NCBI GenBank assembly: GCA_000991245.1
Contig: LBRD01000006.1
Location: 103,340-167,339 of the forward strand
Direction of reading: 5' to 3'
Length of the DNA stretch: 64,000 bases
Source of the DNA: Parcubacteria group bacterium GW2011_GWC1_36_108
GTDB taxonomy: Bacteria; Patescibacteriota; Minisyncoccia; Moranbacterales; GWC2-37-73
A model generated the notes under the pieces. That model was not told where the DNA came from. It searched no databases and was given only the letters and a program-made list of their open reading frames with translations. A program made the position numbers and the translations under genes. Positions 22,672 to 57,781 of the stretch are shown here, in pieces. How positions within the stretch are numbered: the stretch's first letter is position 1; the number at the start of each line of letters is the position of its first letter.

Positions 22672-23043
22672 CTACTTCCAGTCAACCTCTAGCGGTCTAA
22701 TTTCTTCGTGGAGCGGGGCTCCGCCAATCAAGTGCAAGTGGATGTGATCCATTTCTTGACCACCGTGTTTGCCAGTGCGAAAAAGCAATTTATACCCATC
22801 TTCGGCAATGTTTAATTCCTTGGCGATGTCTCTGGCAGTAACAATCATTTTTCCCAACAATTCAACATCCGCGGGATCATTAACTTCGTTTATCGATGCA
22901 ATATGTTTTTTGGGAATAATCAAAATATGCACAGGTGCAAGTGGATGAATATCCTTGAAAGCAATAATCTCTTTGTTTTCAAAAACAATTTTCGCATCAA
23001 CCTTTTTTTCAACAATTTTACAAAAAATACAATCTGAATTCAT
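22672..23043 (-). CDS. HIT-family (histidine triad) hydrolase
   Basis: C-terminal QEMDHIHLHLIGG HxHxHxx motif. Start moved to the second in-frame ATG (MNSDCIF); the upstream MLYDICY is read from the start-box repeat. Confidence 0.8.
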   Translation of the reverse strand: MNSDCIFCKIVEKKVDAKIVFENKEIIAFKDIHPLAPVHILIIPKKHIASINEVNDPADVELLGKMIVTARDIAKELNIAEDGYKLLFRTGKHGGQEMDHIHLHLIGGAPLHEEIRPLEVDWK

Positions 23044-23125
23044 GTAGCATATATCATATAGCATGTAACAAAAATACGAGCCCGCATCCCTTGTTATATG
23101 TTATATGTTTTGTGTTATATGATTA
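23041..23125. repeat. Start-box element copy 1: ~85-bp imperfect inverted repeat CATGTAGCATATATCATATAGCATGTAACA-loop-TTGTTATATGTTATATG
   Basis: Related copies at 27428-27524, 35857-35945 and 57640-57700, each abutting a gene start; generates an MLY(D/A/V)(I/T)C(Y/F)M pseudo N-terminus in four ORF calls. Confidence 0.45.
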
Positions 23126-24553
23126 TTCTCCTTCGTGGGAAACAACCACATTGTTTTTTAATATTTTTCTTACCGCAATGATAAGGCGTTCGTGATTGAC
23201 AGTTTCTTGCGTGCCACTGACCATATCTTTCACAATCACTGTTTCATCGAGAGCTTCTTTTTGACCAATGATCAAAGTGATTTCAACACCAAGCCTGTCA
23301 GCCACGCGAAGTTGTGATTTTAATGATCCGCGTCCAAAACTTTCCGCAGTCAAAATTCCATTTTTTTGAAGTTCCGCAAAAACATTCAAACTTTTTTTCT
23401 TTGCCAAATCTCCAAGTTGTGCCAAAAATACTCGAGGCTTCGGTTCGATATACATTTTTGCATGCACGCGCTTCATTTCCTGCACGATTCTGTCCATACC
23501 TATTCCAAATCCAATAGCTGGTGTGTGTTCTCCACCCAATTCTTCAATCAAATGATCATATCGTCCTCCACCACCAAGTGAGTGTTTTTTGCCCTCTTCG
23601 TCGCCAGACCAAATTTCAAAAACTGTTTTAGTATAATAGCTAAGACCCCTAACCAAACGAGGATTAATCACATACGGCAAATCAAGCTCATCCAAATATT
23701 CCAACAAGCTCTTGAAATGAACGCGACATTCGGTGCAAAGTCTGTCTATTGATTGAGGCGCTGTTGTTGCAACTTGAATACATTTGTCTTCCTTGCAATC
23801 CAAAATTCTAAGCGGGTTTATTTCCAATCTTTTTTTGCAATTAAGACAAAGCTTCTGTTTTTTTGATTCAAAATATGCCACCAAAAGTTCTTGATATTCT
23901 TTGCGACATTTTGGACAACCGATCGAGTTAACTTGAAATTGAATATTTTTAATTCCCAAACTTGTAACCACGCGATGAGCCAATTGAATAAGCTGCGCGT
24001 CAAGAATAGGATCTTGTTCTCCAAAAGCATCGAAATTTGCTTGGAAATGTTCTCGATAGCGCCCTTCTTGCGGACGATCATAGCGATACACTGGACCAGT
24101 TGAAAAAAGTTTCACTGGTTTTGAAAGCACGTTCATTCCGTGTTGAATATACGCTCGTCCAAGGCCTGCAGTTAATTCTGGTCTAAGCGCAACTTTGTCT
24201 CCACCTTTGGTAGTAAACATATACATTTCCTTGTCCACGATGTCAGTTCCCTTTCCAATTGAACGAACAAATAAATTGGCATATTCCACAGCCGGCGTGT
24301 CAATACGCTGAAATCCATAGTCAATAGCCACACGCGCGAGCACGCGTCTCAGTTGATTCCAATAGGGCTGATCTCCTGGTAGAAGATCTCGCATACCCCT
24401 TGGTGGTTGCATTAAAATTTCCTCCTGAACCTGCATTTTTTCTTTCAAAACCTTCTTTGCTGTCGGAGCTTTCACTGCTTTTTTTGCGGTTGTTTTTTTA
24501 TCCATTTTTTTTGCAACGCTTTTCTTTATTATTTTATCTTTTACTTTTGCCAT
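23123..24553 (-). CDS. hisS: Histidine--tRNA ligase
   Basis: RGMRDLLPG and YRYDRPQEGRYREHFQ class-II aaRS / HisRS motifs. Start set at MAKVKDK; the first 12 codons of the track ORF are read from the AT-IR repeat. Confidence 0.9.
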   Translation of the reverse strand: MAKVKDKIIKKSVAKKMDKKTTAKKAVKAPTAKKVLKEKMQVQEEILMQPPRGMRDLLPGDQPYWNQLRRVLARVAIDYGFQRIDTPAVEYANLFVRSIGKGTDIVDKEMYMFTTKGGDKVALRPELTAGLGRAYIQHGMNVLSKPVKLFSTGPVYRYDRPQEGRYREHFQANFDAFGEQDPILDAQLIQLAHRVVTSLGIKNIQFQVNSIGCPKCRKEYQELLVAYFESKKQKLCLNCKKRLEINPLRILDCKEDKCIQVATTAPQSIDRLCTECRVHFKSLLEYLDELDLPYVINPRLVRGLSYYTKTVFEIWSGDEEGKKHSLGGGGRYDHLIEELGGEHTPAIGFGIGMDRIVQEMKRVHAKMYIEPKPRVFLAQLGDLAKKKSLNVFAELQKNGILTAESFGRGSLKSQLRVADRLGVEITLIIGQKEALDETVIVKDMVSGTQETVNHERLIIAVRKILKNNVVVSHEGE

Positions 24554-24665
24554 ACAATTACAAAAGTTCATAAAGTTTATAAAGTTCAAATTTTATAAAG
24601 CAAACGCATTCAAATACTTTATAAACCTTAAAAACTTTACGAACCTTTGACTTTCTAAACCATTT
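24549..24665. repeat. AT-rich inverted-repeat spacer, TATAAAGTT family
   Basis: ttcataaagtttataaagttcaaatt...ctttataaaccttaaaaactttacgaacc: tandem tataaagtt words and their complements around a central spacer; same architecture at 17470-17580, 22575-22672, 29655-29828 and 51782-51870. Confidence 0.45.
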
Positions 24666-24729
24666 AGAAAAACGATATATAAAATACAAACTAGAAACAG
24701 ATTATGCAATTAATATTTAAAACTTAAAA

Positions 24730-25362
24730 CTATAGTATTTCTGCTTTTGTGAATGGCCAGGCTCTGATCAGAACTTTTCCGATAACATCATTTTCAGGAA
24801 GAGCACCCCAAGCGCGAGAATCATGAGAAAACTGACGATTATCGCCCAATACAAAATATTCATTATCTTTGATTGTTGTTGTTACAGCTCCGTTAGTTAT
24901 TGATCCTGCGGACAAATAAGCGCGCTCATCAAGCACCAACCCTTCAGGATTTTCATCATTATAAATAGTAACCTTGCCTGCTTCAACTTTCACTTGCTCC
25001 CCTGGAAGTCCGATTACACGCTTAATGAAAAATTGCTTAGGATCACGAGGATAACGAAAAACCACAACATCTCCGCGATTCAATTCTTTGAAAGATCCTA
25101 TTGTAAAAAGATGCATCCCATCAACATTAGCGTTTGTTTCTTTATAGCCCAACTCATTAACTATCAAATAATCGCCGTCTTTAAAATTTGGCTCCATACT
25201 TGCACCTTGCACAAAAAAGGGCTGAAAAAGGAAAACTCTGATTGGAACAATAATGATAAGTGCCCAGAAAAAGACTTTTACCACTTCCCAAAGAAAACTT
25301 CCGACACCATAATACACTTCTTCTTCTGTTTCAATATTATTGTTTATTTTTTCCATATTCAT
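24730..25362 (-). CDS. lepB: Signal peptidase I
   Basis: GASMEPNFKDGD (catalytic Ser box) and KRVIGLPGE (Lys box). Start moved to MNMEK; the first codons of the track ORF come from REP-A copy B. Confidence 0.85.
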   Translation of the reverse strand: MNMEKINNNIETEEEVYYGVGSFLWEVVKVFFWALIIIVPIRVFLFQPFFVQGASMEPNFKDGDYLIVNELGYKETNANVDGMHLFTIGSFKELNRGDVVVFRYPRDPKQFFIKRVIGLPGEQVKVEAGKVTIYNDENPEGLVLDERAYLSAGSITNGAVTTTIKDNEYFVLGDNRQFSHDSRAWGALPENDVIGKVLIRAWPFTKAEIL

Positions 25363-25368
25363 AGGATT

Positions 25369-25560
25369 TACGCTTTTTCTCAACTATTTCTTATTTGGCA
25401 CGCTTTTGGATGAATGTTTACCCCGTCAAATCCAGCAAAGCTGGTGTTCACTGCTGTGAACAATTTGACGGGGCGAGTATCCAAAAGCTCAAAGAGTCGC
25501 TGTCGCCAACAATTGGCCAAAAAAGAAATGTTTCGAAAACAATGATACCACGCATCAGCC
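25369..25560. repeat. REP-A copy B (long form with 53-nt nested hairpin insert ccccgtcaaat...atttgacgggg)
   Basis: Same core as copy A plus the insertion ccccgtcaaatccagcaaagctggtgttcactgctgtgaacaatttgacgggg, a perfect 11-bp stem. Confidence 0.55.
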
Positions 25561-25565
25561 TCAGG

Positions 25566-25677
25566 CGCAAGCCCCGTTAGAAGCCTCTAAAGAGCTATTT
25601 TTTGACATTTTAGCACAATCAAATTAAACAATAAGTTCAATACTATAGAATTTGTGGAAAGCTTCTAACGGGGCAAG
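25566..25677. mobile_element. MITE-like element, family M1 copy 3 (diverged TIR gcaaGCCCCGTTAGAAgc ... gcTTCTAACGGGGCaagc)
   Basis: 18-bp TIRs; interior block agaagcctctaaagagctattttttgacattttagc is duplicated just outside the right TIR (25688-25725), where it forms the likely promoter of the LCP gene. Confidence 0.45.
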
Positions 25678-25728
25678 CCCACTAAATAGAAGCCTCTAAT
25701 ACGCTGTTTTTTGACATTTTAGCCTAAA

Positions 25729-27411
25729 TTGCGTACCATACTAACGATGGATGGTATCAGAAAAAAACAAATTTTAGCACCAAACACAACAGAAGTTGAC
25801 TCCCATTCGGAATCGAACGCTGTTTTTCAGCGACAAGAACCACAATCTCAATATTTTCCAAAAAGAGAGGAACTTTATATCCCCCGCGAAGAAACTATGC
25901 AAACTATGCAAGAAGAAAAGGATGAAAAAAAATTTCAAAAGGGGCGACTGTTGCAAAAAATATTATGGACTTCCTTGATAATCGCGATACTGCTTTTGCT
26001 TTCTTTTACAATATTTTTTCTTAGTAAGACATACCTTACTACCAAAAAAATGAATGATTCTTCCACGCAGACATCATTGTCGCAGGATATGAAATCACTT
26101 TTTTCTCCAATTATCCCATCATCTGATAAACACATTTTAAAAGGAGAAGACGAGGGACGCATCAATATTTTGCTACTTGGCGCAGCGGGAGAAAACAAAC
26201 CCGGAGGAAATCTGACCGACACAGTGATGATTATGAGTATTGATACCAAGAATAAAAAGGTTGCACTTCTTTCTTTGCCAAGAGATTTTTATGTTCCAAT
26301 TCCTGCCTCTACGGCAGGCGAGCCTGATTCACAATCGTTTACCAAAATTAACAGCTTATACAAAATCGGACTTGCCCAGCAAAAAGGAGCAGATTTAATC
26401 AAACAAGCTGTAGAAAAAGTTACGGCAGTAGAGATGGATTATTACATCGCAGTTGACTTTGATGCTTTTGCAAAAATTATTGATAACATCAATGGTATCA
26501 ATGTGATGGTTGAGCGCGACATATATGACCCGACATATCCTGGACCAAATTATAGCTATGAACTTTTTGCATTGAAAAAGGGCGCTCATTTGCTTGGTGG
26601 CGATGTTGCACTCAAATATGTTCGCGAACGGCACGACGATCCAGAAGGTGATTTTGGCAGGGCCAAGCGTCAACAACAAGTTATTCAAGCAGTCAAAAGC
26701 AGGCTATTTTCAATGCAAACAATATTTAATGTTGTCGCATTAAATAATGTGCTCAACACACTTGGAAACAATATTAAAACGGATATGTCATTTGATGATA
26801 TTGAACAGTTTATAAAATTAAGCAAAGATGTCGATACACAAAACATTACCAATGTGGTTGTTGATGCGTGGAAGCCTGACAGTTTGCTTAAGGTTTCACA
26901 CATAATGCTGGGAAACGACCGCGCCTTTATTTTGATTCCGCGTATTGGCAATTACAGTGAAATCCAAGATCTTGCTCAAAATATTTTTGACCAGACGGAA
27001 TTGAAAAAACGTCAAGCAGAAATTTTACAGGAAGATGCAAGCATTGCTATCATCAATCAATCCTCAGATGCCGAACTTGATGACAAAATTAAAAAGTTGC
27101 TCACAGAAAAGTTGAAATTCAAAAATGTAAAAATTATTTCCAACGATTCTAATGAAATCAAAAACAAAACCACTGTCGCCAGTAATTCTGATGTCGAAAA
27201 AATATTCACTCTTGATGAACTGATCAAAAAACTTCCTGCAACGATTGATTCACCCGCCAGCAACGCTTCGCGTAGCGATGCGGGCTGGCAAAAGACTGAT
27301 CTGGAAAATGACATCACAATAACACTTGGAAACGATTTGATTGATATTTATAAATATGAAGAAGACACTATGCAGGATTTAGAGAAAGCGCAGGACAGTC
27401 AATTCAATTAA
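25729..27411 (+). CDS. LytR/CpsA/Psr (LCP) family cell-envelope phosphotransferase
   Basis: N-terminal TM then ILLLGAAGENKPGGNLTDTVMIMSIDTKNKKVALLSLPRD, the LCP core motif. Confidence 0.85.
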   Translation: MRTILTMDGIRKKQILAPNTTEVDSHSESNAVFQRQEPQSQYFPKREELYIPREETMQTMQEEKDEKKFQKGRLLQKILWTSLIIAILLLLSFTIFFLSKTYLTTKKMNDSSTQTSLSQDMKSLFSPIIPSSDKHILKGEDEGRINILLLGAAGENKPGGNLTDTVMIMSIDTKNKKVALLSLPRDFYVPIPASTAGEPDSQSFTKINSLYKIGLAQQKGADLIKQAVEKVTAVEMDYYIAVDFDAFAKIIDNINGINVMVERDIYDPTYPGPNYSYELFALKKGAHLLGGDVALKYVRERHDDPEGDFGRAKRQQQVIQAVKSRLFSMQTIFNVVALNNVLNTLGNNIKTDMSFDDIEQFIKLSKDVDTQNITNVVVDAWKPDSLLKVSHIMLGNDRAFILIPRIGNYSEIQDLAQNIFDQTELKKRQAEILQEDASIAIINQSSDAELDDKIKKLLTEKLKFKNVKIISNDSNEIKNKTTVASNSDVEKIFTLDELIKKLPATIDSPASNASRSDAGWQKTDLENDITITLGNDLIDIYKYEEDTMQDLEKAQDSQFN

Positions 27412-27427
27412 ATATTTAACATTTATA

Positions 27428-27524
27428 AAAAAATAAAGTTTAAAAATCATATAACATATAACATATAACAAAAATGCAGACTCGCATCCTTGTTACATGA
27501 TATATGCTATATGCTACATGCTTC
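27428..27524. repeat. Start-box element copy 2 (upstream of pth)
   Basis: aatcatataacatataacatataaca-aaaatgcagactcgcatcc-ttgttacatgatatatgctatatgctacatg; loop similar to copy 1 (aaaatacgagcccgcatcc). Confidence 0.45.
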
Positions 27525-28052
27525 ATGAAACTATTAGTAGGCTTAGGCAATCCGGGCGATCAATATGAGGAAACTAGACACAACGCTGGGTTTATAGTTT
27601 TGGACGAAATTCAAAAAGAACTTTCTTTTCCAGAATTTCAATTGAACAAAAAATTTGAAGCTGAAATTTCAGAGGGAAATGTTGATGGAGAAAAAATAAT
27701 CTTGATCAAGCCGCAAACATTTATGAATCTTTCTGGAAAAAGTGTCGCTAGCATTATGACTTTTTATAAAATTCCTATTGAAGATTTAATTGTACTTCAC
27801 GATGATCTTGATATTAAGCTTGGAGAATTTAAAATTTCCATAGATTCTTCAGCCGCTGGGCACAATGGTGTGACTTCAATTTTTGAAACACTTGGCACAC
27901 AAAAAATCAAACGCGTTCGCATTGGAATTGAAGGCGCTGAAAAGAAACTTGAGCGGCAAATGTCTGGTAGTGATTTTGTTTTGCAAAAATTTTCCAAAGA
28001 AGAATTTGCAACCATCCAAAAACTTTCAACAGAAATTACAAAAATTCTATAA
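27525..28052 (+). CDS. pth: Peptidyl-tRNA hydrolase
   Basis: MKLLVGLGNPGDQYEETRHNAGF N-terminal signature; start moved past the repeat-derived MLYATCF. Confidence 0.9.
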   Translation: MKLLVGLGNPGDQYEETRHNAGFIVLDEIQKELSFPEFQLNKKFEAEISEGNVDGEKIILIKPQTFMNLSGKSVASIMTFYKIPIEDLIVLHDDLDIKLGEFKISIDSSAAGHNGVTSIFETLGTQKIKRVRIGIEGAEKKLERQMSGSDFVLQKFSKEEFATIQKLSTEITKIL

Positions 28053-28588
28053 GCGATACAAATTTAAAAGCGTCAATCTTTTGTATATTCGAGTTTCGAA
28101 TAATTTCAAAAGTTTGACGCTTTTTGTTGTTTTCCAGCTTACCATTACCGACCCCTTGTTATCATTGTTATCATTACAGCAATAGCAATTTCCAAGGATT
28201 CGAAAAGCCTTCTGGAAAATTTCCTGCACTTGGTTGACTCAAGAAGATTACAAAGCCAATGCAGAAAAAGGAAAAGTAGCAAGAAACAGATTGCAATTAT
28301 AATAGCAAGCATAGCCCTCACCTTCCCTTTCCAGTTTGATATTATTTCAATCAAACTGATTTAGTTAAAAGAACAGTTACCCCCTCCTAAAACAACAAGA
28401 GACAACTCCCTAAAAGAACTGTCTTTATTGCAAAAGAGCAAATTTGAGTCAACCACCTTATACATCCATTATACTCCTTTTTTAGCAAAAAGTCAATGGA
28501 GTGCTGTTTCTTGCTTATATAGAGCCAAAAAATCACACAAGAATTTTTGATAATTGTCAAATATTTCAAGATAGGATATTCTTGATAA

Positions 28589-29668
28589 ATGAAACACTTA
28601 AACGCTTTGAATACAATTTACGGACTTGGGAATCAAAAAATGAAATTGTTGATGAGTTTTTTTGAAAACGCAGAGCAAGTTTGGCAAGCGTCTCGCGAGG
28701 AACTTTTGAAATCTGGTATCGGAGAAAAAATTGCACAAAAAATTGTCGAGCAAAGACCTCTTATTGATATTGAAAAAGAATGGGAAAAATTGGAAAAGGA
28801 AAACATTCTCGCCATTGGACTTGATGACCCTCACTACCCCGCCCTGCTCAAGCAAATTCCAGACAATCCTTATCTTATATATATGAAGGGAGATTTGACC
28901 TGCCTTGACTTTCCGTTGGTTGCTATTGTTGGGTCGCGAAAATTGACAGAATATGGCAACGATGTTGCCCGTGGATTTGCCAGAGACTTGGCCGACAGTG
29001 GCATTTGTGTTGTTAGTGGTCTTGCCTTTGGAATCGATGCTATGGCCCACTCTGGAGCGCTTGAGGTCAAAGGAAGAACGATTGCCGTGCTCGGAAACAG
29101 CTTGGACGCCGAAAGCATCTCGCCGCGCACCAACTTTCAACTTTCCGAAGACATTATTAAAGGTGGCGGACTTTTGATTAGCGAATTTCCAGTTAAAACA
29201 TCTGCTACTGTTGGAACATTCCCTATGCGTAATCGCATTATGGCTGGAATGAGTCTTGGCACATTGGTTGTTGAAGCCGCAGAAAAAAGCGGTAGTCTTA
29301 TTACTGCCAACTTGGCCTTGGATTATAATCGCGATGTTTTTGCCGTGCCGGGATCAATCTTTTCGCCCCAGTCAACAGGAACACATCTACTCATTAAAGC
29401 TGGAGCTAAACTTGCAACTTGTGTGGGCGACATTTTAACCGAACTGCGAATCGAAAGCGGCAAAAAAATACCTCTTGAAGCAAAAGTTTTTGACCTGACA
29501 GATGATGAAAAAATAGTGCACACAGTTCTTTCCCACGAAAGCCTCCACATTGACAGAATATCAAAACTGACTAAACTTGAGACATCGACCATTTCCTCAA
29601 TACTCGCAATGATGGAAATAAAAGGCGCAATCAAGAACGTCGGAGGACAGAATTATATAAAGTTATAA
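28589..29668 (+). CDS. dprA: DNA processing protein DprA (Smf)
   Basis: VAIVGSRKLTEYG...CVVSGLAFGIDAMAH Rossmann-like DprA core. Confidence 0.9.
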   Translation: MKHLNALNTIYGLGNQKMKLLMSFFENAEQVWQASREELLKSGIGEKIAQKIVEQRPLIDIEKEWEKLEKENILAIGLDDPHYPALLKQIPDNPYLIYMKGDLTCLDFPLVAIVGSRKLTEYGNDVARGFARDLADSGICVVSGLAFGIDAMAHSGALEVKGRTIAVLGNSLDAESISPRTNFQLSEDIIKGGGLLISEFPVKTSATVGTFPMRNRIMAGMSLGTLVVEAAEKSGSLITANLALDYNRDVFAVPGSIFSPQSTGTHLLIKAGAKLATCVGDILTELRIESGKKIPLEAKVFDLTDDEKIVHTVLSHESLHIDRISKLTKLETSTISSILAMMEIKGAIKNVGGQNYIKL

Positions 29669-29828
29669 AGTTATAAAGTTCATAAAGTTTATAAAGTTAT
29701 AAAGCAAGAATCGAAAATATTTCATCATTATAATCATAAAGTTCGTAAAGTTCATCAAGTTTATAAAGTAAAAATGCATTCTACTTTATAAACTTTAAAA
29801 ACCTTATAAACTTTAAAAACTTATTAAA
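29655..29828. repeat. AT-rich inverted-repeat spacer, TATAAAGTT family (largest copy)
   Basis: ataaagttataaagttataaagttcataaagtttataaagttataaagc ... ctttataaactttaaaaaccttataaactttaaaaac: six or more direct words, then complementary words. Confidence 0.45.
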
Positions 29829-32132
29829 ATGAAGCTAATAATCGTTGAGTCTCCTACTAAAGCAAAGACTATAACAAAATTTTTGGGTAAAGGTTTCACA
29901 GTGAAATCTTCTTTTGGTCATGTGCGTGATTTGCCAAAAAGTGGGATGGGGGTGGATATTGAAAAAGATTTCACACCAAGCTATGAAATTCCAGACAAAG
30001 CGCGCATCAAGGTGGCTGAACTTTTGAAACTCTCCAAGAAAGCTGATGAAGTTATTCTAGCTTCCGATGAAGACCGCGAAGGAGAAGCGATTGCTTGGCA
30101 CTTGGTTGAAGCGTTAGGATTAGATAAGAAAAACAAAAAACCATATTCTCGTATTGTTTTTCATGAAATTACAAAAAATGCAATTTTGAAAGCATTAGAA
30201 ACTCCGAGAGAGATAGATATAAATTTGGTTGACGCTCAGCAGGCACGGCGCGTGCTTGATCGATTGGTTGGATATGAACTTTCTCCATTTTTGTGGAAAA
30301 AAATTCGTCGCGGACTTTCCGCTGGACGCGTGCAATCAGTAGCGCTGCGCTTTATTGTTGAGCGCGAACGAGAAATTCAAGCTTTTGTTGCTGAAGAATT
30401 TTGGACAATTTCTGCCAAACTTCACCCTGTTAAATCCGGCGGGGTCGCCGGTGCGAAGCAATTTAACAGGGTGAAAAAAGAAAAAACTAACGATGAATTT
30501 GAAGCCAATTTACTGGAGCAAAATGGAGAAAAAATTGAACAAACCATCACGTTAAAACTTTTTACCGGAGATTATAAAACCAAAAAAAGTGTCATTGCCA
30601 ACAAGAAAACAGCCGAGCAGATTACCAGTGAACTCAAAGATGCGAAATATCAAGTTTTGTCAGTTGAGAAAAAAGAAACGATGCGAAGTCCTTCCGCCCC
30701 TTTTACTACTTCGACTTTGCAACAAGCTGCCATCAGCAGTTTTGGTTTTTCAGCCAAGCAAACAATGATGACGGCGCAAAAACTTTATGAAGAAGGTTAC
30801 ATCACATATATGCGAACTGACAGTATGAATCTGTCATTGGAATCTTTAATGAGCGCAAAAAAAATAATTGAAAAAGAATTTGGTAAAAATTATTCATTGG
30901 AAAGTCCTCGCTATTTCAAAACAAAATCAAAAAGCGCGCAAGAAGCTCACGAAGCTATCCGTCCAACTGATCCGGAAAAAACTCCTGATGAGCTGATGCC
31001 GCTTTTGGAAACCAATCAATACAAATTATACCGCCTCATTTGGAACCGAATGATTGCTTGCCAAATGCAAAACGCAAAATTAAATTCTGTTAAAGCTGAC
31101 ATCGAAGCTGCCGGAAAGAAAAATAAATTCTTGCTGCGAGCATCTGGCTCAACCGTTGTTTTTGATGGTTTTTTGAAAGTATACGAAAACAGAGCGGCGC
31201 AAGCTGAATCATTTTTGCCAGAACTAAAAAAGGGAGATCCGCTTTCTGCTTTGGAGGTTTTGCCATTGCAAAAATTTACCTCTGCCCCACCACGATATAA
31301 TGAAGCAACATTGGTTAAGGTTTTGGAAGAACACGGAATTGGCCGACCTTCAACTTATGCACCAACCATTTCAACTATTATTGACCGCAAATATGTTGAT
31401 AAAAATGAAGATAAGAGATTGTTTCCTCTGGAAATTGGTTTTCCAGTTAATGACCTTTTGGTTGAGCATTTTCCAGAAATTGTCGGCATCGATTTTACTG
31501 CAACTATTGAAAAAAGTTTTGATGAAATTGCCGAAGGAAACAAGCCTTGGGTTCCGGTAATTCGAGATTTTTATGGACCATTTCACAAATTGCTTGAAGA
31601 AAAAACTGACAGTGTCAAAAAAGAAGATTTGGTGGAAAAACTTGATCGACCCTGCCCTACTTGCGGAGCAGAATTAGTTATGAAATTTGGACGCTTTGGA
31701 AAATTTATCGCTTGCAGCAATTATCCAACTTGTAAATATACTGAAAAAACCGACAGTGAAAAAAAGGAGGATGAAGAAAATTCCGGGGTTATTTGTGACA
31801 AATGTGGAGCACCAATGGTTGTCAAACGCGGAAGATTCGGTCCATTTTTGGGTTGCTCAAAATATCCAGAATGCAAAAACATTATGAATATTGAGAAAAA
31901 AACCGGAGTTAAATGTCCCAAGTGTCAAAAGGGAGATATTATTGAACGCAAATCCAAAAAAGGCAAGATGTTTTATGGTTGCAACAAATATCCAGCTTGT
32001 GACTTCGTGATGTGGAACAAGCCTACGGGAGAAATGTGTCCATCTTGTGGACAACCACTTGCTTTTGCTGCCAAAGGAAAAACCAAATGCTCAAACAAGG
32101 AGTGTGGAAAAACATTTGACGCAAAAGAATAG
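29829..32132 (+). CDS. topA: DNA topoisomerase I
   Basis: MKLIIVESPTKAKTI TOPRIM N-terminus; C-terminal CxxC...CxxC zinc-ribbon repeats; 767 aa. Confidence 0.95.
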   Translation: MKLIIVESPTKAKTITKFLGKGFTVKSSFGHVRDLPKSGMGVDIEKDFTPSYEIPDKARIKVAELLKLSKKADEVILASDEDREGEAIAWHLVEALGLDKKNKKPYSRIVFHEITKNAILKALETPREIDINLVDAQQARRVLDRLVGYELSPFLWKKIRRGLSAGRVQSVALRFIVEREREIQAFVAEEFWTISAKLHPVKSGGVAGAKQFNRVKKEKTNDEFEANLLEQNGEKIEQTITLKLFTGDYKTKKSVIANKKTAEQITSELKDAKYQVLSVEKKETMRSPSAPFTTSTLQQAAISSFGFSAKQTMMTAQKLYEEGYITYMRTDSMNLSLESLMSAKKIIEKEFGKNYSLESPRYFKTKSKSAQEAHEAIRPTDPEKTPDELMPLLETNQYKLYRLIWNRMIACQMQNAKLNSVKADIEAAGKKNKFLLRASGSTVVFDGFLKVYENRAAQAESFLPELKKGDPLSALEVLPLQKFTSAPPRYNEATLVKVLEEHGIGRPSTYAPTISTIIDRKYVDKNEDKRLFPLEIGFPVNDLLVEHFPEIVGIDFTATIEKSFDEIAEGNKPWVPVIRDFYGPFHKLLEEKTDSVKKEDLVEKLDRPCPTCGAELVMKFGRFGKFIACSNYPTCKYTEKTDSEKKEDEENSGVICDKCGAPMVVKRGRFGPFLGCSKYPECKNIMNIEKKTGVKCPKCQKGDIIERKSKKGKMFYGCNKYPACDFVMWNKPTGEMCPSCGQPLAFAAKGKTKCSNKECGKTFDAKE

Positions 32133-48579: not shown

Positions 48580-48645
48580 GACCTGTCGCTCGCGAGCGAC
48601 GGGTCTTGACTTTTTGGTGATTTGGGTGTATACTATACGGTTGTA
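48580..48645 (+). promoter_or_regulatory. Near-consensus sigma70 promoter (TTGACT-17-TATACT) preceded by a 26-bp GC-rich palindrome (candidate operator)
   Basis: gacctgtcgctcgcgagcgacgggtc (13-bp arms, one G-T mismatch) at 48580-48605, immediately followed by TTGACT (48606-48611), a 17-nt spacer and TATACT (48629-48634). Confidence 0.55.
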
Positions 48646-48694
48646 GTTATTTAAATAAATCGCAACAAAATTCTTTTGCAAGGGGAGTAGTGAA

Positions 48695-48919: not shown

Positions 48920-48929
48920 CACCCCTTTA

Positions 48930-49028
48930 CCGCTCCGTTCCGAGATTCATTCGGAATGTGAGCGGTTTTTTTATTTTTTCCAAATTTTCAAAACTACTTT
49001 TTTTGTCATTCCGAACTTGTTTCGGAAT
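48930..49028 (+). terminator. Two consecutive stem-loops with T-tracts downstream of the 74-aa gene
   Basis: ccgctc...gagcgg with T-run (48930-48990), then ttccgaa cttgt ttcggaa (49008-49028). Confidence 0.45.
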
Positions 49029-49183
49029 CTAGAAGAGCATGAATGTTCAAGCCCGACGAGATCCTGAAACACCCGCCTCGACTCGCGAGACGATCGCTCG
49101 TCGAAGCGAGGCGGGAGTTCAGGATGACAATATATTTTAAATTTGCATTTTCCTAAGAAGCTAAAAAGCTAAAGCCTAATAAG

Positions 49184-50143
49184 CTACTCAAGGGCTGCTC
49201 TCCCTGCTGAAATCTCAGCGATTTCCTGCGTAATCTTTCCTTGTCTGATTTGGTTATATGCCAGAGTCAAATCCTCACTCATCTCTCCGGCTGCGTCGGT
49301 GGCGTTTCTCATGGCGAGCATTCGCGCAGATTGCTCGGAGGCTTGCGATTCCAAAACTGCGTGGAAAAGCTGCATCTCAATCAAACGCGGAATGATAAAT
49401 TCCAAAACCTCTTCGGGACTAGGCTCAATCTTATATTCAACCATAGGCTCTTCCAATCCATATTCTTTAGCAATAATATCCATTTCAGCAATTTGTTTTT
49501 CAATATCAATTTTTGAAATCGGCAAAACCTGACGAATTCTGGTTTGCTGATTTACAGCACTGACATAATCAGTATACACAACAACAACTTTGTCATATTT
49601 TTTTGCCAAATAATCTTCCATCACAATTTTTGAAAGTGGTTTGATGTCAGCGACAGTCGCAAATTTTCCACCATCTTCAAAAGCAGCGATGATATCTTTT
49701 TGCATTTTTTTCACCATACTCTCACCTTTTTTTCCAATCGTAATAAAATCAATCTTCAAATCTTCGTCTTTGATTTTTGATTCTATTTTCTTTTTTCCAA
49801 TACGGTTTATTTTCAATTTTTCAGGATGCAAAATTTCTTCTTTAATTTTTTTGGCAACTTGCGTGTTAAATGATCCGCAAAGTCCGCGGTTAGAAGTCAC
49901 AGCAATAATCAAAACACTTTTCACTTCGCGCACTTCCAAGAAACCATATCCTTGTGAAGATTCAAAAGCTCGCGCCAAGTTTGTCAGCACACTCCAAGCA
50001 GCATGAGCGTATGGTCTAATCCCCAGCACACTAGCCACTGCGCGCCTCATTTTTGCAGCACTAACCATCTCCATCGCTTTTGTTATCTTGCGAGTGGAGT
50101 TAATAGAGCGTATTCGTCTTTTTATGTCGAGTGATGAAGCCAT
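49184..50143 (-). CDS. atpG: ATP synthase gamma subunit
   Basis: KRRIRSINSTRKITKAMEMVSAAKMRRA N-terminal helix and C-terminal ...AQLTLEYNRARQ-like end (TLAYNQIRQGKITQEI). Confidence 0.9.
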   Translation of the reverse strand: MASSLDIKRRIRSINSTRKITKAMEMVSAAKMRRAVASVLGIRPYAHAAWSVLTNLARAFESSQGYGFLEVREVKSVLIIAVTSNRGLCGSFNTQVAKKIKEEILHPEKLKINRIGKKKIESKIKDEDLKIDFITIGKKGESMVKKMQKDIIAAFEDGGKFATVADIKPLSKIVMEDYLAKKYDKVVVVYTDYVSAVNQQTRIRQVLPISKIDIEKQIAEMDIIAKEYGLEEPMVEYKIEPSPEEVLEFIIPRLIEMQLFHAVLESQASEQSARMLAMRNATDAAGEMSEDLTLAYNQIRQGKITQEIAEISAGRAALE

Positions 50144-50275
50144 ATGTTTATATTAAATATCAAATTAAAAATAACAAATATCAAATGAATTCCAAATGCC
50201 AAATGTTTTAATTTTGTCATTTAAGAATTTAAGCATTTATTTGAAATTTTTAATTTATAATTTGAAATTCTGCTT

Positions 50276-51781
50276 TTATGTGGTCTGATATATTTCCTTA
50301 AACTCCTTAATCGCCTTTTCCAATCCCGCCACAACGTCTTCTGAAAGTTCTTTCTTTTCTGAAATTAGTGCGATCAATTCTTTAGCATTAGAATCCAAAT
50401 ATTTATGAAAATCTTTTTCCCAAGTTTTGATTTCTTCCACCGCCACATCATCCAAAAATCCATTCGTCAGTGCATACAAGATTGCAACTTGATGCTCAAC
50501 AACCATTGGTTCGTATTGTCCTTGCTTAAGAATTTCAACTGATCGTCTTCCACGTTCAATCTGAGCGCGAGTTTTTTCATCAAGATCAGAGCCGAATTGT
50601 GCAAACGCTTCAAGTTCACGAAACTGAGCAAGTTCAAGACGAATCTTTCCAGCCACTTTTTTCATAGCTTTGATTTGAGCGCTACCACCCACACGAGAAA
50701 CTGAAAGTCCCACATTTACGGCTGGACGAATTCCTTTATAGAATAAATCTGATTCCAAGAAAATTTGACCGTCAGTGATAGAAATAACATTAGTTGGAAT
50801 GTATGCACTAACATCTCCTGCTTGCGTTTCAATAATCGGAAGTGCGGTCATTGAACCACCACCGAAGTCTTCATTAAGTTTCGCACTTCTTTCCAAGAGT
50901 CGTGAATGCAAATAAAAAACATCTCCTGGATATGCTTCGCGTCCCGGTGGACGTTTCAAAATCAAAGAAATCTGACGATATGCCCAAGCGTGACGAGAAA
51001 GATCATCGAACACGATCAAAACATCCTCTCCTTTGTCCATAAAATATTCTCCAAGCGCGCAACCAGAATATGGAGAAATGTATGAAAGCGCTGAAGATTC
51101 AGATGCTCCTGCTACCACAATAGTTGTATATTCCATTGCTCCACGTTTTTCAAGTTCTCCCAAAATACGTGCAATCTTTGATTCTTTCTGACCAATCGCC
51201 ACATAAATACATTTCATGTTCTGACCTTTTTGATTGATAATGGTATCAATTGCAATCGCAGTCTTTCCAGTTTGACGATCACCAATAATAAGTTCGCGTT
51301 GTCCGCGTCCAATTGGAATCATCGCATCGATAGCTTTAATTCCAGTCTGTACCGGCTGATGAACTGATTTACGAGTAATAACGCCAGGTGCAATTTTTTC
51401 TACAGGATAAAATTTATCAGCTGCAATATCGCCTTTTCCATCTACTGGAATTCCAAGCGGATTAATAACACGTCCGATCATTGCATCAGACACTGGAATT
51501 GAAAGAACTTTGCCCGTGGCTTTAACCTCATCACCTTCTTTGATTCCAGTATAATTTCCGAGCACAATTACACCCACGCGATCTTCTTCAAGATTAAGCG
51601 CCACGCCGATTTCCCCATTTGGGAATTCAACCATTTCTGATGCCATAAGCTCTGAAAGTCCAGAAACACGAGCAACACCGTCACCCATTTCAATAACTTT
51701 CCCAACTTTTTCAGTCGAAGTTTCAGTTTTGAATCCTTCGATTTGCTTTTTTAATTGTTCGATAATGAAATCTTTGTTCAT
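50276..51781 (-). CDS. atpA: ATP synthase alpha subunit
   Basis: [19 protein letters not shown] Walker A; 501 aa. Confidence 0.95.
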
Positions 51782-51870
51782 AATATATAGTTATAAAGTT
51801 TATAAGGTTTTTAAAGTTTATAAAGTAAAATACATCCACACTTTACGAACTTTATGAACTTTACGAACTT

Positions 51871-52287
51871 TTAACTTATTAATTTATTTTTCAAATTAGT
51901 TAATTGTTTTTTCACACTACCATCTATAATATCATCATTAATCTTGATTATAATTCCTCCTTGAATCTTTTCATCAATAACATTCTTGATCTCCACAACT
52001 TTAGCTGAATATTTTTCTTTCACAAATTTTTCAATTTTCTCTTTCATTTCGTGTTCAATTTTTTCCTTTGTCACAACTTCGGCCACAATTATTCCATTTG
52101 CAGCATTATATAATTCGCCAAATTTTTCCATTATTTTTCCAGCATTTTTCAATTGTCCGTCAGCCTTCAATTGCTGCGCAAATTTTTTCACAATAACTAA
52201 AAGCTCCTGCTCGGATTTTCCGTCGGTCATTTCAAAAAGTGTTTGGGAATATTGCTTAATGGATACTTTCATTTTTGTGAATATCAA
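51871..52287 (-). CDS. atpH: ATP synthase delta (OSCP) subunit
   Basis: 138-aa helical protein between atpF and atpA; weak OSCP-like C-terminus. Confidence 0.65.
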   Translation of the reverse strand: MIFTKMKVSIKQYSQTLFEMTDGKSEQELLVIVKKFAQQLKADGQLKNAGKIMEKFGELYNAANGIIVAEVVTKEKIEHEMKEKIEKFVKEKYSAKVVEIKNVIDEKIQGGIIIKINDDIIDGSVKKQLTNLKNKLIS

Positions 52288-52391
52288 ATTTCAAATTAAA
52301 AATTCCAAATCAATTATTAAATTTCTTAATTACAAATTTCAAACATTTGGCATTTGAAATTCATTTGATATTTGTAATTTGTTATTTTTAA

Positions 52392-52880
52392 TTATCTGAT
52401 TGCTTTTGCAATTAAATCAGTGTCTTTCTCACTTGTCATTTTTTCATCAATAAGTTTTCTGGTTGCTGCCACCACCAATTCAGCGATTTGCCCTTTCACT
52501 TCTTGCATCATTTGATTTTTTTCTAATTCAATCTTTTTTGCACTGTCAGCAAGAATTTTTTCAGCTTGCGCTTTTGCCTCAACCACAATTTCTTCCTTGT
52601 TTTTTACAGCCACAGCCTCGGCTTTAGCCACAATTTCTTGCGCAGTTTTTCGAGCCTCAACCAAAACTTCCTTTTCCTTCTGCGTAATTTCAGCGAGCCT
52701 TTTCTGCGATTCTTCTGCGTCTGCAATTCCTTTTTCAATTTTTTCACTGCGCTCATTCATCAATTTCATCATTGGACCATAAGCATAACGCTTAAGCACA
52801 AATAAAACGATGGCAAAGTTTACCAACTGCGCAATGATTAATTTAATGTCGATGTGAAATGTTGAGATTAGTTCTTGCAT
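52392..52880 (-). CDS. atpF: ATP synthase b subunit
   Basis: Single N-terminal TM then long charged coiled coil (AEAE/KAQAE repeats). Confidence 0.75.
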   Translation of the reverse strand: MQELISTFHIDIKLIIAQLVNFAIVLFVLKRYAYGPMMKLMNERSEKIEKGIADAEESQKRLAEITQKEKEVLVEARKTAQEIVAKAEAVAVKNKEEIVVEAKAQAEKILADSAKKIELEKNQMMQEVKGQIAELVVAATRKLIDEKMTSEKDTDLIAKAIR

Positions 52881-53058
52881 AAAATTTTGTAATTTTGTAA
52901 TTTTGTAATTTTTAAATAATGTCCTAATTTCTAATTTTTAAAAATTATAATTTAAGATTTATTTATAAAATTTAAAAATTAAAAATTTGAAATTGCTATT
53001 TTATAATATTCTCATCTCGACTTCCTATTTCTAAGAAGCCGAATGAAAACACTAATAA

Positions 53059-53373
<315 letters not shown>

Positions 53374-53450
53374 TTAATTTCTTAAATTCTGAATTGCATT
53401 TTTGAATTTGTATTTTGCATTCTGCATTTCCTACAACCTAATTCCTGCTC

Positions 53451-54320
53451 CTAATGCTCTTCTGCTGTCGTTGCTATACTCATAAACGCCAAAGTCAAAA
53501 TTGCAAACACTAGAGCCTGCACTATTCCAACTATCAATTCCAAAAACATAAACGGGATTGGCAGCAGGAATGCAGAAATGGCCATCATTGAAGCTAGCAA
53601 AACTTCTCCTGCAAAAATATTTCCAAAAAGTCGAAGACTAAGCGATGCAATCTTGGCGATTTCCCCTACCACCTCAATCAAACCTACGAAAGCTTTGATT
53701 GGATTTACCATTATCAAAATCGGTTCTTTGCGTCCCTTTTTGAAAATTTGCAAAAATGCTTTGATGTTAAAAAATTTATTGAAATGATTCCAAGCTCCAA
53801 CCCAAACAACACCCAGAATGTGCGAAAGAATCACTGCAAAAAGTGAAATTGCTAAGGTTGTGTTAAGGTCAGCTGTAGCGCCGCGTAAAAATGGAATGAA
53901 AACTTTTCCGTGTGCGCCTGTCTCCACAAATCCAATCGTACCAACTCCCGGAAGAAGTCCTAACCAATTGTTTACCAAAATAAACAAGAATAGTGACAAT
54001 ACTACTGGCAAAAATTTTCCTGTTTTTTTGCGAGAACCAGTGACACTATCAGCCAAATTCAAGGCTTGTTCTAAAAGAATTTCAAAAATATTTTGCACAC
54101 CAGACATTTTCTTTGTTTTTTTGCTAGCCTTTTTACCAACAAGCACAAAAAAAGTCACCAAAATGGCAACTGTGATCCAACTCATAACAAGCGAATTTGT
54201 GATTGTAAAATTTCCCACATGCAAAATCGGCTCAGCGAACAAGGTTGATTCTGTTTGAATCTCCTGAGAAGGTTGTGTATTATTTTGTGTTGATAACTCC
54301 GACATCAATTTCTGAACCAC
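53451..54320 (-). CDS. atpB: ATP synthase a subunit
   Basis: VNNWLGLLPGVGTIGF and the conserved Arg-containing TM4 region (ASLSLRLFGNIFAGE). Confidence 0.85.
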   Translation of the reverse strand: MVQKLMSELSTQNNTQPSQEIQTESTLFAEPILHVGNFTITNSLVMSWITVAILVTFFVLVGKKASKKTKKMSGVQNIFEILLEQALNLADSVTGSRKKTGKFLPVVLSLFLFILVNNWLGLLPGVGTIGFVETGAHGKVFIPFLRGATADLNTTLAISLFAVILSHILGVVWVGAWNHFNKFFNIKAFLQIFKKGRKEPILIMVNPIKAFVGLIEVVGEIAKIASLSLRLFGNIFAGEVLLASMMAISAFLLPIPFMFLELIVGIVQALVFAILTLAFMSIATTAEEH

Positions 54321-54409
54321 TGATTAGCACTTGATTATCCTGATTGCACATGATTTTTTTATCAGTGAAATCATGTGCGTTCATGTGATAATCAGTGGTT
54401 CTGATTATT
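54321..54409 (-). promoter_or_regulatory. Nested perfect hairpins between atpZ and atpB (candidate processing or attenuation structure)
   Basis: Outer arms gaaccactgatta / taatcagtggttc (13 bp) enclose the inner perfect 10-bp hairpin gcacatgatt / aatcatgtgc. Confidence 0.4.
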
Positions 54410-56618: not shown

Positions 56619-56623
56619 AAAAA

Positions 56624-57214
56624 CTATATTTCTTTAAGCTTGTTTCTTATTTCTTCCAATTTTGCAGCCGTATCCTCCTGGATTTCAGATAATGCATTAA
56701 TGCTGCCTATTTTAACCACGGGACTAAATGTGCCATCCTCTTGAGCCATATGATACCTTAAAACATATTTTTCCATCAGCTCATCGTATTTTATGGGATT
56801 TTTGTCTATTTTTATACGTTCTATTTCATCAGCTCTGTTTTTAGCAACCATAACGGAACCCTCATAAACCTTTTCATTCTTTTCACCTGAATCTTTTTTT
56901 GGAATTTCTTTACCAAGATGATAATGTTTCACTAATGAATCAATAATTTCTGCTTGTTTTTCTTCTTCACCTGACAATTTTTCTAATAGTTTTTGCACAC
57001 CCTCCTCTCCTAAACTTTCAATTCCCAAAAGAGTCACGTTGTTTTTTATACGCAAAAAATTATCCCCTTCAAGGATTTTTTCTATTCCCACACACTCCTT
57101 TGTTGGATGATTTCCGCGACACAGACCGCAAGAAATTCTTTCTACTTTTTTAATATTCAATCCCTCTTCCCCTTTTTCACCTGCCAAGCCTAGCATCTCA
57201 TGAGAATACACCAT
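56624..57214 (-). CDS. Hypothetical protein with CxxC...HPTKEC putative zinc knuckle
   Basis: 196-aa ORF between tatD and the YtoQ-like gene; no confident family. Confidence 0.45.
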   Translation of the reverse strand: MVYSHEMLGLAGEKGEEGLNIKKVERISCGLCRGNHPTKECVGIEKILEGDNFLRIKNNVTLLGIESLGEEGVQKLLEKLSGEEEKQAEIIDSLVKHYHLGKEIPKKDSGEKNEKVYEGSVMVAKNRADEIERIKIDKNPIKYDELMEKYVLRYHMAQEDGTFSPVVKIGSINALSEIQEDTAAKLEEIRNKLKEI

Positions 57215-57247
57215 AATTTTATTGTTACAATTAAAAAAACAAACAGA

Positions 57248-57643
57248 TCATTTTATATCGTTCAAATTGCCGTTAAGCACGATTGGACTCATAGCCATAA
57301 TTTCATCCTTATAAGTCACTTCTGGAATACCTTGGAGTAAATATATTTTTTTGCCGAGAGCGTGAGCAAAGCCCATTTCAAGAAAAGAGCTTCCACTTAT
57401 ATAGTCTTCCTTACCATCTTTCAATGATTTATTAAGAACCAGCAAAGCATCAGAAGTTTTAAGCTTTTCAAAGAAAGATGCTCTATTTTCCTCTTTCTTT
57501 GCTTCATCCTTTTCTGACAATTGATCCAAAAACTCAAAAGTTGGGACAACTTCATAACCCTTGTTCTCCAATTCTTCTTGAACTTCCATGATGTCTGGCA
57601 ACATATAGACATTGCCGCTGATTGCAATTTTCATAAGATTCAT
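57248..57643 (-). CDS. YtoQ / nucleoside 2-deoxyribosyltransferase-like Rossmann protein
   Basis: MKIAISGNVY...LLVLNKSLKDGKEDYISGSSFLEMGFAHALGKKIYLL pattern. Start moved downstream of the start-box repeat at 57640-57700; the track ORF extends to 57775. Confidence 0.55.
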   Translation of the reverse strand: MNLMKIAISGNVYMLPDIMEVQEELENKGYEVVPTFEFLDQLSEKDEAKKEENRASFFEKLKTSDALLVLNKSLKDGKEDYISGSSFLEMGFAHALGKKIYLLQGIPEVTYKDEIMAMSPIVLNGNLNDIK

Positions 57644-57781
57644 GAAACATATAACATATAGCATACAACATAGAAAAGCCGCTACATCATACCTGCATAT
57701 TACAATTTCATTTAAAATTATTCCTAAAAATAGTACTGCAATTAGATACAAATTGACAACAAATTTATTCCTCAACGGTGT

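Follow-up and report, generated by a model that had tools for sequence, protein, structure and literature searches.

Why should one and the same hairpin repeat lie on the start codons of unrelated genes? The question is raised by a 64,000-nucleotide (nt) stretch of contig LBRD01000006.1 of Parcubacteria group bacterium GW2011_GWC1_36_108 (positions 103,340 to 167,339; hereafter the window), in which an AT-rich inverted repeat built of heptamers, the CATATAA element, abuts the start codons of HIT, pth, parA and a fourth gene. The original prediction offered three possibilities: a promoter for leaderless mRNAs, a regulator-binding site, or a repeat resembling repetitive extragenic palindromes (REPs) that had come to rest at gene starts. 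The last fits best: the copies share a core motif, their occupancy of the junction between a LytR-family gene and pth is patchy, and the genes downstream are functionally unrelated. We give an even chance to the fuller proposal developed here, that the element is a dispersed hairpin repeat of the REP or MITE (miniature inverted-repeat transposable element) kind, co-transcribed with its host genes and shaped by selection on translation initiation that does not depend on a Shine-Dalgarno (SD) sequence.

Anatomy and position of the element

The 16-mer CATATAACATATAACA matches the window 24 times with at most three mismatches, as against 0.99 matches expected from shuffles, the largest shuffle count being 4. 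The matches cluster at the four sites already described, where the sequences are as reported (23041-23121, 27448-27520, 35861-35948 and 57641-57677), and at two unreported ones (11029-11051 and 17421-17436); Tandem Repeats Finder (TRF) and an inverted-repeat search recover identical arms. Three copies, those at HIT, pth and parA, are complete (arm, core and inverted arm, 81-88 nt), one at 57.6 kb has a single arm, and two are fragments, six loci per 64 kb of a family dispersed in extragenic imperfect palindromes. The inverted arms, 23-30 nt long and ~78% complementary, are terminal inverted repeats of the kind that marks a MITE, and their stems are AT-rich and 25-30 bp long. The symmetric arms first described hold for the three complete copies and fail for the fourth, for which no inverted partner was found at the 57.6-kb site.

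Read in the sense of the gene, a full copy follows an upstream stop codon or promoter and runs through a G-free arm, (CATATAA/CATACAA)3-4, a 19-28-nt core and a second arm, (TGCTACA/TGTTACA/TGCTATA/TGATATA)4, with an ATG every 7 nt, to reach the true ATG after 0-4 further nt (0 for HIT, 4 for pth and 4 for parA), as the claim of a position at or near the start codon had it. The features are as follows, in window coordinates.

23041-23070, minus strand: copy 1, gene-proximal arm; sense TGTTACATGCTATATGATATATGCTACATG; HIT starts at its last ATG (23043-23041)
23071-23091, minus strand: copy 1, core or loop; plus strand reads aaaatacgagcccgcatccct; a small ATGCG/CGTAT stem lies inside
23092-23121, minus strand: copy 1, gene-distal G-free arm; sense CATATAACACAAAACATATAACATATAACA; begins 1 nt past the hisS TAA (23125-23123)
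27448-27470, plus strand: copy 2, gene-distal arm, (CATATAA)x3.3; 36 nt past the stop of the LytR-family gene (27411)
27471-27489, plus strand: copy 2, core or loop, AAAATGCAGACTCGCATCC, with an ATGC...GCAT mini-stem
27490-27524, plus strand: copy 2, gene-proximal arm TTGTTACATGATATATGCTATATGCTACATG and linker CTTC; true pth ATG at 27525
35857-35890, minus strand: copy 3, linker (sense ACCG) and gene-proximal arm TGCTACATGTTATATGATATATGCTACATG; parA ATG at 35856-35854
35891-35918, minus strand: copy 3, 28-nt core, unlike the cores of copies 1 and 2; the sister-species core starts AAAATGCGG
35919-35948, minus strand: copy 3, gene-distal arm; sense CATATAACATACAACATATAACATATAACA
35971-35999, minus strand: parA promoter of the sigma-70 type, TTGAAA, 17 nt, TACAAT, with TG extension; upstream of copy 3
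57635-57677, minus strand: copy 4, single arm; sense ...TATGTTGTATGCTATATGTTATATGTTTCATGAATCTT; directly before an ATG (57634-57632)
11027-11053, minus strand: single-arm fragment; sense TATGTTATATGTTATATGCCATATGTTGCATG; upstream of a promoter module
17421-17436, minus strand: degenerate remnant (2-3 units), flanked by a canonical terminator and the 16969-17373 gene's promoter

The copies stand between hisS and HIT (minus strand), between the LytR-family gene and pth (plus strand), before parA (minus strand), and between metG and an unnamed 128-aa open reading frame (ORF), whose earlier label as YtoQ-like finds no support in Pfam or NCBIfam. Copy 1 fills the 79-nt hisS-HIT spacer from 1 nt past the TAA up to the ATG; the 11027-11053 fragment, ~170 nt from the next start codon, is not start-proximal. 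Taken as a family, the element has 3-5 heptamers in each of its two inverted arrays and a core of 15-30 nt. Within each unit the unchanging positions are CAT in the distal arm and ATG in the proximal arm, and the mismatches lie between them. Because the 7-nt unit contains CAT/ATG and TAA, stop codons fall in the upstream arm and ATGs in rotating frames downstream; a gene's real start is either the final ATG of the array or one lying 4-5 nt past it. Stops in all three frames are not a general property of the distal arm, since TAA occupies every frame in the pth copy only and two frames in the HIT and parA arms.

Two further parts of the first description hold in part. The conserved loop is shared by copies 1 and 2 only (~15/19 positions), the parA copy having its different 28-nt core, and occurrence in either orientation is true of the plus-strand reading, whereas relative to the downstream gene the orientation is constant. 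A loop inversion between copies 1 and 2 was considered and dropped as undecidable, the core itself being nearly palindromic.

True starts and false N-termini

The element puts spurious ATGs in frame with real ones. For HIT, alignment to the NCBIfam HinT profile starts at residue 1 of MNSDC, and an ATG 21 nt upstream yields the spurious extension MLYDICY; for pth, ~100 homologues begin MK(L/I)(I/L)VGLGNPG, and an in-frame ATG at 27504 yields MLYATCF; parA is 261 aa long in all public gene calls. The false N-terminus said to be common to four genes therefore belongs to HIT (MLYDICYM), pth (MLYATCFM) and the 128-aa ORF (MLYVICFM) and not to parA, where an in-frame TGA precedes MAKII. Such extensions have already entered public protein records, as a 182-aa pth product starting MLYATCFM (GCA_003545005.1) and orthologues starting MLHATCYM and MLHVPCSM, and callers of genes in the candidate phyla radiation (CPR) should take account of upstream ATGs in heptamer arrays.

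A probable transcribed leader rather than a promoter

Could the element be a portable promoter giving leaderless or near-leaderless mRNAs, with GATATA as its -10 box? GATATA does lie 6 nt upstream of the HIT ATG; a leaderless-looking gene is close by, with TATAAT 6 nt from the ATG of 16969-17373; and the REP2 and Correia repeats of Neisseria are known to carry promoters (PMC3184786). Against this, a scan of 22000-37000 found no pair of -35 and -10 hexamers at 16-18-nt spacing on the sense strand inside any copy. The fixed distance of 6-7 nt claimed for GATATA also fails, the motif standing 6 (HIT), 13 (parA) and 20 (pth) nt from the ATG. The final T of a sigma-70 -10 box is invariant, and GATATA lacks it. 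Finally, at parA and at an enolase gene in a relative (L081) a canonical promoter precedes the element; in L081 a one-arm (CATATAA)6 array follows an extended -10 box. On these grounds, a promoter role is extremely improbable.

The parA promoter (35971-35999), which is also kept in the sister species, lies upstream of copy 3, and copy 3 is therefore essentially the entire 5′ untranslated region (UTR) of parA. The same scan gives no sign of an intrinsic terminator, the stems being AT-rich and lacking a T-run; it flags a single site, antisense to the gene, in the pth copy. A terminator role was rejected in view of the absent T-run and of the canonical terminators (GC stem and T-run) found elsewhere in the window, for example at 36560-36533 and ~17440-17475; canonical promoters occur elsewhere too. 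Rfam covariance models run over the 64-kb window match no family to the element, the sole hit being a tRNA at 36055-36136. A site for a sequence-specific regulator is unlikely because many unrelated unit families, described below, share the identical architecture.

An SD-like motif stands upstream of only 9 of 53 window genes, so SD-independent initiation is the norm here. The TATAAT mentioned above belongs to the minus-strand stretch 17374-17400 before the nucleotidyltransferase gene 16969-17373, whose mRNA is probably leaderless given the 6-nt distance from the ATG.

Relatives at other genes and in other genomes

Candidatus Moranbacteria bacterium GW2011_GWC2_37_73 and several Rifle groundwater contigs encode parA and pth proteins identical to the window's, and a sister species, UBA12142 (locus L063; genome DNVR01), shares ~92% DNA identity across 32.3-39.9 kb. 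A cyanobacterial origin, which heptamers of the STRR/HIP1 kind had suggested, was rejected on these protein and contig matches. An exact 16-mer scan with one genome per species recovers many CPR contigs, at least five of them from DNVR01. Among the matches listed, a two-arm CATATAA element directly precedes unrelated genes in Moranbacteria and at other CPR loci, and its ATG arm always adjoins the gene. Judged by their N-terminal sequences, these genes are presumably hrcA (L032), a dTDP-glucose dehydratase gene (L107), the trigger factor gene (L121), a response regulator gene (L045), rsmH (L109), a UDP-glucose dehydrogenase gene (L111) and dnaX (L078), among others. One-arm arrays stand upstream of enolase (L081) and other genes in several genomes.

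The predicted bias toward gene starts is borne out: when hairpin boundaries are set automatically, the element's 3′ end falls -3 to +4 nt from the ATG in 15/15 cases, and its start falls 0-8 nt past the upstream stop in most co-directional ones, some elements including the stop. Most copies, across genes and species, carry a core motif, AAAATGC on the distal side or GCATTTT on the proximal side. Recurrence of this AAAATGC...GCATTTT motif across loci and species speaks for a shared ancestry of the copies and against growth in place alone. In lineages farther off, other units build the same kind of structure (L134); one of these versions is a GC-rich octamer array that stops 4 nt short of the ATG (L155).

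The LytR-pth spacer can be followed through 11 lineages.

Window, L128 and L129: element of the CATATAA type (3/11 lineages)
L130: hairpin with a different unit (AAATCTCA/TGAGATTT)
L213 and L217: AT-rich, with weak arrays
L216: 112 nt, no arrays
L131, L212, L214 and L215: only 12-26 nt, no hairpin

The pth proteins of L128 and L129 are 78% and 62% identical to that of the window once the spurious N-terminal residues are trimmed. L128 carries (TGCTACA)5 in register with the ATG, and in L129 the units are TGTTCCA/TGCTCCA, compensated in the opposite arm by one unit (CATGGAA/TTCCATG). The three carriers are not mutual closest relatives on a rough single-protein neighbour-joining tree, and the patchy distribution may reflect either repeated gain at one junction or many losses.

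A metagenome search for pth relatives returned mostly distant lineages among the matches listed. Five Moranbacteria Pth proteins (P0004, P0005, P0021, P0048 and P0084) contain low-complexity insertions of 12-45 residues (e.g., GIKGVNGENIKKVENKEEGK...), all at one internal position; these suggest that tandem-repeat expansion also occurs inside coding regions.

Strand asymmetry of the arms

For the three complete window copies, the antisense RNA is predicted to fold at -34.6, -36.3 and -37.8 kcal/mol and the mRNA-sense strand at -20.7, -22.1 and -23.0 kcal/mol. The same holds for 13 elements together, with predicted energies of -8 to -27 kcal/mol for the sense and -21 to -39 kcal/mol for the antisense strand: the latter is favored by at least 9.8 kcal/mol in 12/13 and holds 85 G·U pairs as against 22. 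Arm pairs counted in a gap-free comparison of the arms are distributed as follows.

Watson-Crick: 295
A·C in the mRNA (G·U on the opposite strand): 73
G·U in the mRNA: 9
Transversion type: 55

Mismatches thus fall on one side, in the same direction in 11/12 elements. The asymmetry is not genome-wide, because the other array families of the window favor the sense strand or neither. Background mutation bias was rejected as its cause, since sense-strand fourfold sites in genes on the minus strand are skewed (G>C, T>A) in the direction opposite to the element pattern. Replication was rejected too: fourfold-site skew indicates a single replication direction throughout the window, yet the plus-strand pth copy, the one informative case, keeps the gene-relative asymmetry, which is probably not replication-linked. 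Ensemble predictions have the upstream AUGs largely paired, with the true AUG the more open one in 9/12 elements; the region from -20 to +12 has an unpaired fraction of 0.23-0.50, which drops to a predicted 0.11-0.38 when the A·C mismatches are converted to pairs.

The asymmetry invites the view that the functional form is the antisense strand, either as an RNA hairpin at which antisense transcription coming out of the AT-rich gene body is halted or as a single-stranded DNA hairpin that is the target of a mobilizing enzyme of the REP/IS200 type (HUH). The near-perfect, G·U-containing helices predicted in 12/13 elements (-21 to -39 kcal/mol) would suit it, as would their retention, with one compensated unit, in orthologues at 78% and 62% protein identity, and the terminator scan does flag the antisense pth hairpin. 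We nonetheless hold this explanation to be very unlikely. No real T-run follows the hairpin, the 55 transversion-type mismatches are tolerated as well, the asymmetry tracks gene direction rather than replication (in the one informative case), no gene for a HUH enzyme or REP-associated tyrosine transposase (RAYT) was found in the window, and the element end starts CATA, without a tag of the GTAG/CGTC type (a criterion from PMC3733652). Selection against a sense hairpin is preferred over selection for an antisense one because transversion-type mismatches are tolerated too and an antisense role is not evident.

How the element could be tolerated on start codons

We propose that the element is transcribed within the mRNA, making up the entire 5′ UTR of parA or the entire spacer between cistrons (hisS-HIT, LytR-pth), and that its effect on the host gene is post-transcriptional. 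Homologous copies would disperse as REPs or MITEs do, with spacers gaining, losing and replacing them over time, and the survivors would be repeats compatible with translation, with stops in the upstream arm and ATGs in all frames in the downstream arm. Selection would permit the arms to diverge only through changes that yield A·C mismatches in the mRNA, which are predicted to weaken the mRNA hairpin by ~15 kcal/mol, while intact CAU·AUG pairing would mask the upstream AUGs and the SD-less initiation region would stay about half open. A half-open initiation region would make the element tolerable on a start codon without silencing the gene. The element may also insulate or stabilize the neighboring cistrons.

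Several points weigh against this proposal. The distribution of the element rests on the matches listed and not on genome-wide counts. No transposase, RAYT or HUH gene is present among the scanned ORFs of the 64-kb window, and no target-site duplication is visible between filled and empty LytR-pth sites, whose spacers align poorly. The element is dispensable for pth expression, because 4 of the 11 LytR-pth spacers are only 12-26 nt long and have no hairpin. All folding is predicted, at 37 °C and under in vitro-like conditions; the nominal significance of the 73:9 imbalance (p ~1e-13) is overstated, slippage-repeated units not being independent events; and the strand asymmetry would be equally compatible with a structure selected on the antisense strand.

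Tempo of change and the case for local origin

Change at the arrays is uneven. Among five population contigs, five array regions contain no variable column, as compared with 59/15,000 variable columns overall, and because these regions are invariant, the arrays are not phase-variable. The parA element differs from that of the sister species at 2/96 positions, and the parA coding sequence is ~90% identical. Upstream of parB, in contrast, the hairpin arms have been replaced in the sister species by another unit family around a conserved center; a hairpin of the AAAGTT type occurs in the sister species only, not in the window. The spacer 41621-41769 has 49% identity as against 86% for its flanking genes, and both versions fold into long hairpins. 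It lies in a segment, 40600-45856, that spans the hydrogenase/complex-I-like cluster and is ~86% identical to L001 and L004, the population contigs being otherwise >99.5% identical; the segment is a sharply bounded recombinant.

Might such arrays simply grow where they stand? Slippage of the heptamer that contains the start codon (NNNNATG), followed by template switching to make the inverted arm, would produce a functionless repeat that is merely pruned by selection, and the likeness between loci would be convergence from the ATG and AT-richness. The start codon is indeed the last repeat unit in HIT, L128, L129 and L045; the window holds at least 12 unrelated unit families of the same architecture; arms turn over much faster than centers (as upstream of parB and in the 41621-41769 spacer, 49% vs. 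86%); single-arm direct arrays precede start codons in several genomes; and prokaryotes have an excess of heptamer simple repeats (Mrazek 2007, as summarized in PMC4679880). We nevertheless rate this explanation rather unlikely: the non-heptamer core motif AAAATGC...GCATTTT recurs across genes and species, copy number is invariant within the population, and the one-sided arm mismatches are unexpected from neutral decay and opposite to the background skew.

Likeness to known systems

No paper describing such elements in Patescibacteria was found. Among described systems the nearest is a set of TAACTGA heptamer direct repeats, of unknown function, in marine Beggiatoaceae, some Cyanobacteria and Bacteroidetes, for which translational regulation has been proposed (MacGregor 2015, PMC4679880). 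Those repeats, too, are tandem heptamers (2-6 or more), intergenic, mostly ending a few nt from a start codon, and they precede unrelated and essential genes in spacers where SD motifs are rare (PMC4679880); the CATATAA arrays are likewise tandem, intergenic and a few nt from the start, in spacers without SD. They differ in being direct repeats of one unit, with one indirect case (PMC4679880), whereas ours are inverted pairs around a core. Here, moreover, the unit CATATAA / TGYTAYA holds ATG and TAA, many unit families coexist, the hosts are CPR bacteria, and the mismatches are strand-specific. New, then, are the inverted-array hairpin form, the many unit families, the exact stop-to-start span, the ATG register and the one-sided mismatches.

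The comparison brings up another explanation, in which an abundant protein that binds single-stranded RNA (cold-shock, S1, or a HutP/TRAP-like ring) would use the heptamers as an array of binding sites and control translation or keep the leader unfolded, the array being a selected translational enhancer or operator. Position and missing SD match the TAACTGA repeats, for which the idea was proposed (PMC4679880); the upstream arm is G-free, its gene-relative orientation is constant, and the parA copy is more conserved than the adjoining coding sequence. What makes this decidedly unlikely is that many unit sequences occupy equivalent positions, even in one orthologous spacer, that the downstream genes are unrelated and close orthologues lack the element, and that no candidate protein was identified.

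The REP, BIME and REPIN sequences of Enterobacteria and Pseudomonas resemble the CATATAA element as dispersed extragenic imperfect palindromes, often co-transcribed between operon genes and patchy at orthologous sites. REPs are 20-40 bp long, GC-rich and RAYT-linked, with a conserved terminal tetranucleotide (PMC3733652 and PMC3116915). Our element has, instead, AT-rich tandem heptamer arms that end on the start codon, in a window without a RAYT gene; it starts CATA and lacks the terminal tag of the GTAG/CGTC type and the short GC-rich stem (PMC3733652). Mycobacterial interspersed repetitive units (MIRUs) also lie between genes of polycistronic operons, are co-transcribed, overlap the stop and start codons of their neighbors and are missing from the orthologous site in a related species (PMC3184786), but they are 40-100 bp long, GC-rich and tandem, are not inverted arrays, and vary in copy number among strains; here the unit is 7 nt and does not vary among the five population contigs. 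The Correia and REP2 elements of Neisseria are small inverted repeats found preferentially 5′ of genes and co-transcribed, with functional promoters, IHF sites and TA target duplications (PMC3184786), whereas ours has tandem heptamer arms and neither a promoter nor a target duplication was found in the scans above. Cyanobacteria reportedly have intergenic heptanucleotide arrays (STRR, short tandemly repeated repetitive sequences) of several unit families, with which short hairpin-like mobile sequences are associated, work that is said to go back to Mazel in 1990 and Elhai in 2008. They belong to another phylum and have other units, and to our knowledge neither a start-codon register nor strand asymmetry has been reported for them.

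Other repeats and features of the window

The CATATAA element is one family in a pervasive class of intergenic hairpin repeats of this genome. The window has 31 array loci with 6-11-nt units, of which 25 are intergenic, though intergenic DNA makes up 17% of the window; the arrays occupy ~17% of intergenic bases. Most are inverted pairs with other units (AAAGTTCAT, AATTTCN, ATTAGAA, ATTCGCAT and more), and this architecture is common to a dozen or more unrelated unit families. Repeat hairpins lie upstream of roughly one gene start in three in the window. None of the 15 TRF-flagged gene starts with an upstream array has an SD-like motif (Fisher p = 0.047); the case for arrays as SD substitutes is weak, most genes being without SD anyway (9/53 with).

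In the atp operon (46221-54404), nearly every intercistronic spacer is an inverted pair of 7-10-nt tandem arrays. The unit differs in almost every spacer, most arrays end 4-50 nt upstream of the next start, and no SD motif is present. The spacers are the following.

46221-46335
46838-46958
48393-48508
50150-50279
51791-51888
52280-52393
52883-52994
54311-54404

A second hairpin family, with 8-9-nt units (AAAGTTCAT / ACTTTATAA), lies at 22583-22666, 24563-24647, 29656-29822 and 51791-51888. Its orientation relative to genes is constant, and at two sites the sense RNA is the more stable (-35.5 vs. -14.0 and -33.5 vs. -15.6 kcal/mol, predicted).

A longer dispersed repeat, TTTTGGCCAATTGTTGGCGACAGC..., has four exact copies (20471-20494, 25499-25522, 32271-32294 and 45980-46003), each adjoining a palindrome, CCCCGTCAAATTGTTCACAGCAGTGAACA...TTTGACGGGG, within ~100 nt around the copy. 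The copy at 25.5 kb shows 50- and 87-nt indels between population contigs, and its L001 version has a 20-nt palindromic insert, gcctgcctgccggtaggcag; the repeat looks like a separate, currently active small mobile element. Motifs of the type TTTCTAACGGGG form three inverted pairs ~75-80 nt apart (6 matches vs. 0.16 expected), at 6248-6346, 18977-19077 and 25572-25673, upstream of the 4667-6100 gene, ftsZ and the LytR-family gene. TTGACA follows one of the arms, so the repeat may carry a promoter.

The window is a core-gene region (ftsA, ftsZ, ybeY, rpsU, hisS, pth, dprA, topA, relA and parAB) that also holds the hydrogenase/complex-I-like cluster, the atp operon and metG. Toxin-antitoxin-like genes lie within it at 1321-1947, 9450-10857, 11341-11754 and 16557-17373: two AbiEii-family nucleotidyltransferase genes (one beside an AbiEi antitoxin gene), a HepT/nucleotidyltransferase pair and a lone nucleotidyltransferase gene. 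A promoter-like module, GTGCATAACTTTTTTGTTTTTTTGTGGTATAAT, with an extended -10 box, is repeated before two unrelated genes (9376-9408 and ~10982-11016, both minus strand), and similar boxes, TGTGGTATAAT or TGTGATATAAT, occur upstream of 36634-37560 and 61083-63242. At 6910-7043, a 72-nt tandem duplication (1.9 copies, 77% identity) falls within a 943-aa ORF (6468-9299) without a Pfam match.

Implications

A repeat that lies on the start codons of essential genes (pth, hisS/HIT, parA), its mRNA strand weakened by what we propose to be selection, offers a natural test of how much SD-less initiation will tolerate, in uncultivated bacteria with tiny genomes (presumably ~1 Mb for this host). That arrays with fast-evolving arms and slower centers should take up so much of the intergenic DNA of a streamlined genome is a pattern for which we know of no described mobile element that accounts. 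A bolder and unlikely reading is that inverted short-tandem-repeat hairpins are a general, selected "stop-hairpin-start" cassette of CPR bacteria, a structural punctuation between cistrons. If so, the cassette, together with an abundant RNA chaperone or nuclease, would replace SD-based initiation and translational coupling, masking false AUGs, exposing the true one and setting the expression ratios of neighbors, for example in every spacer of the atp operon at 46.2-54.4 kb; the CATATAA element would then show the cassette at its plainest, and the one-sided A·C/G·U pattern would be the mark left by its evolution.

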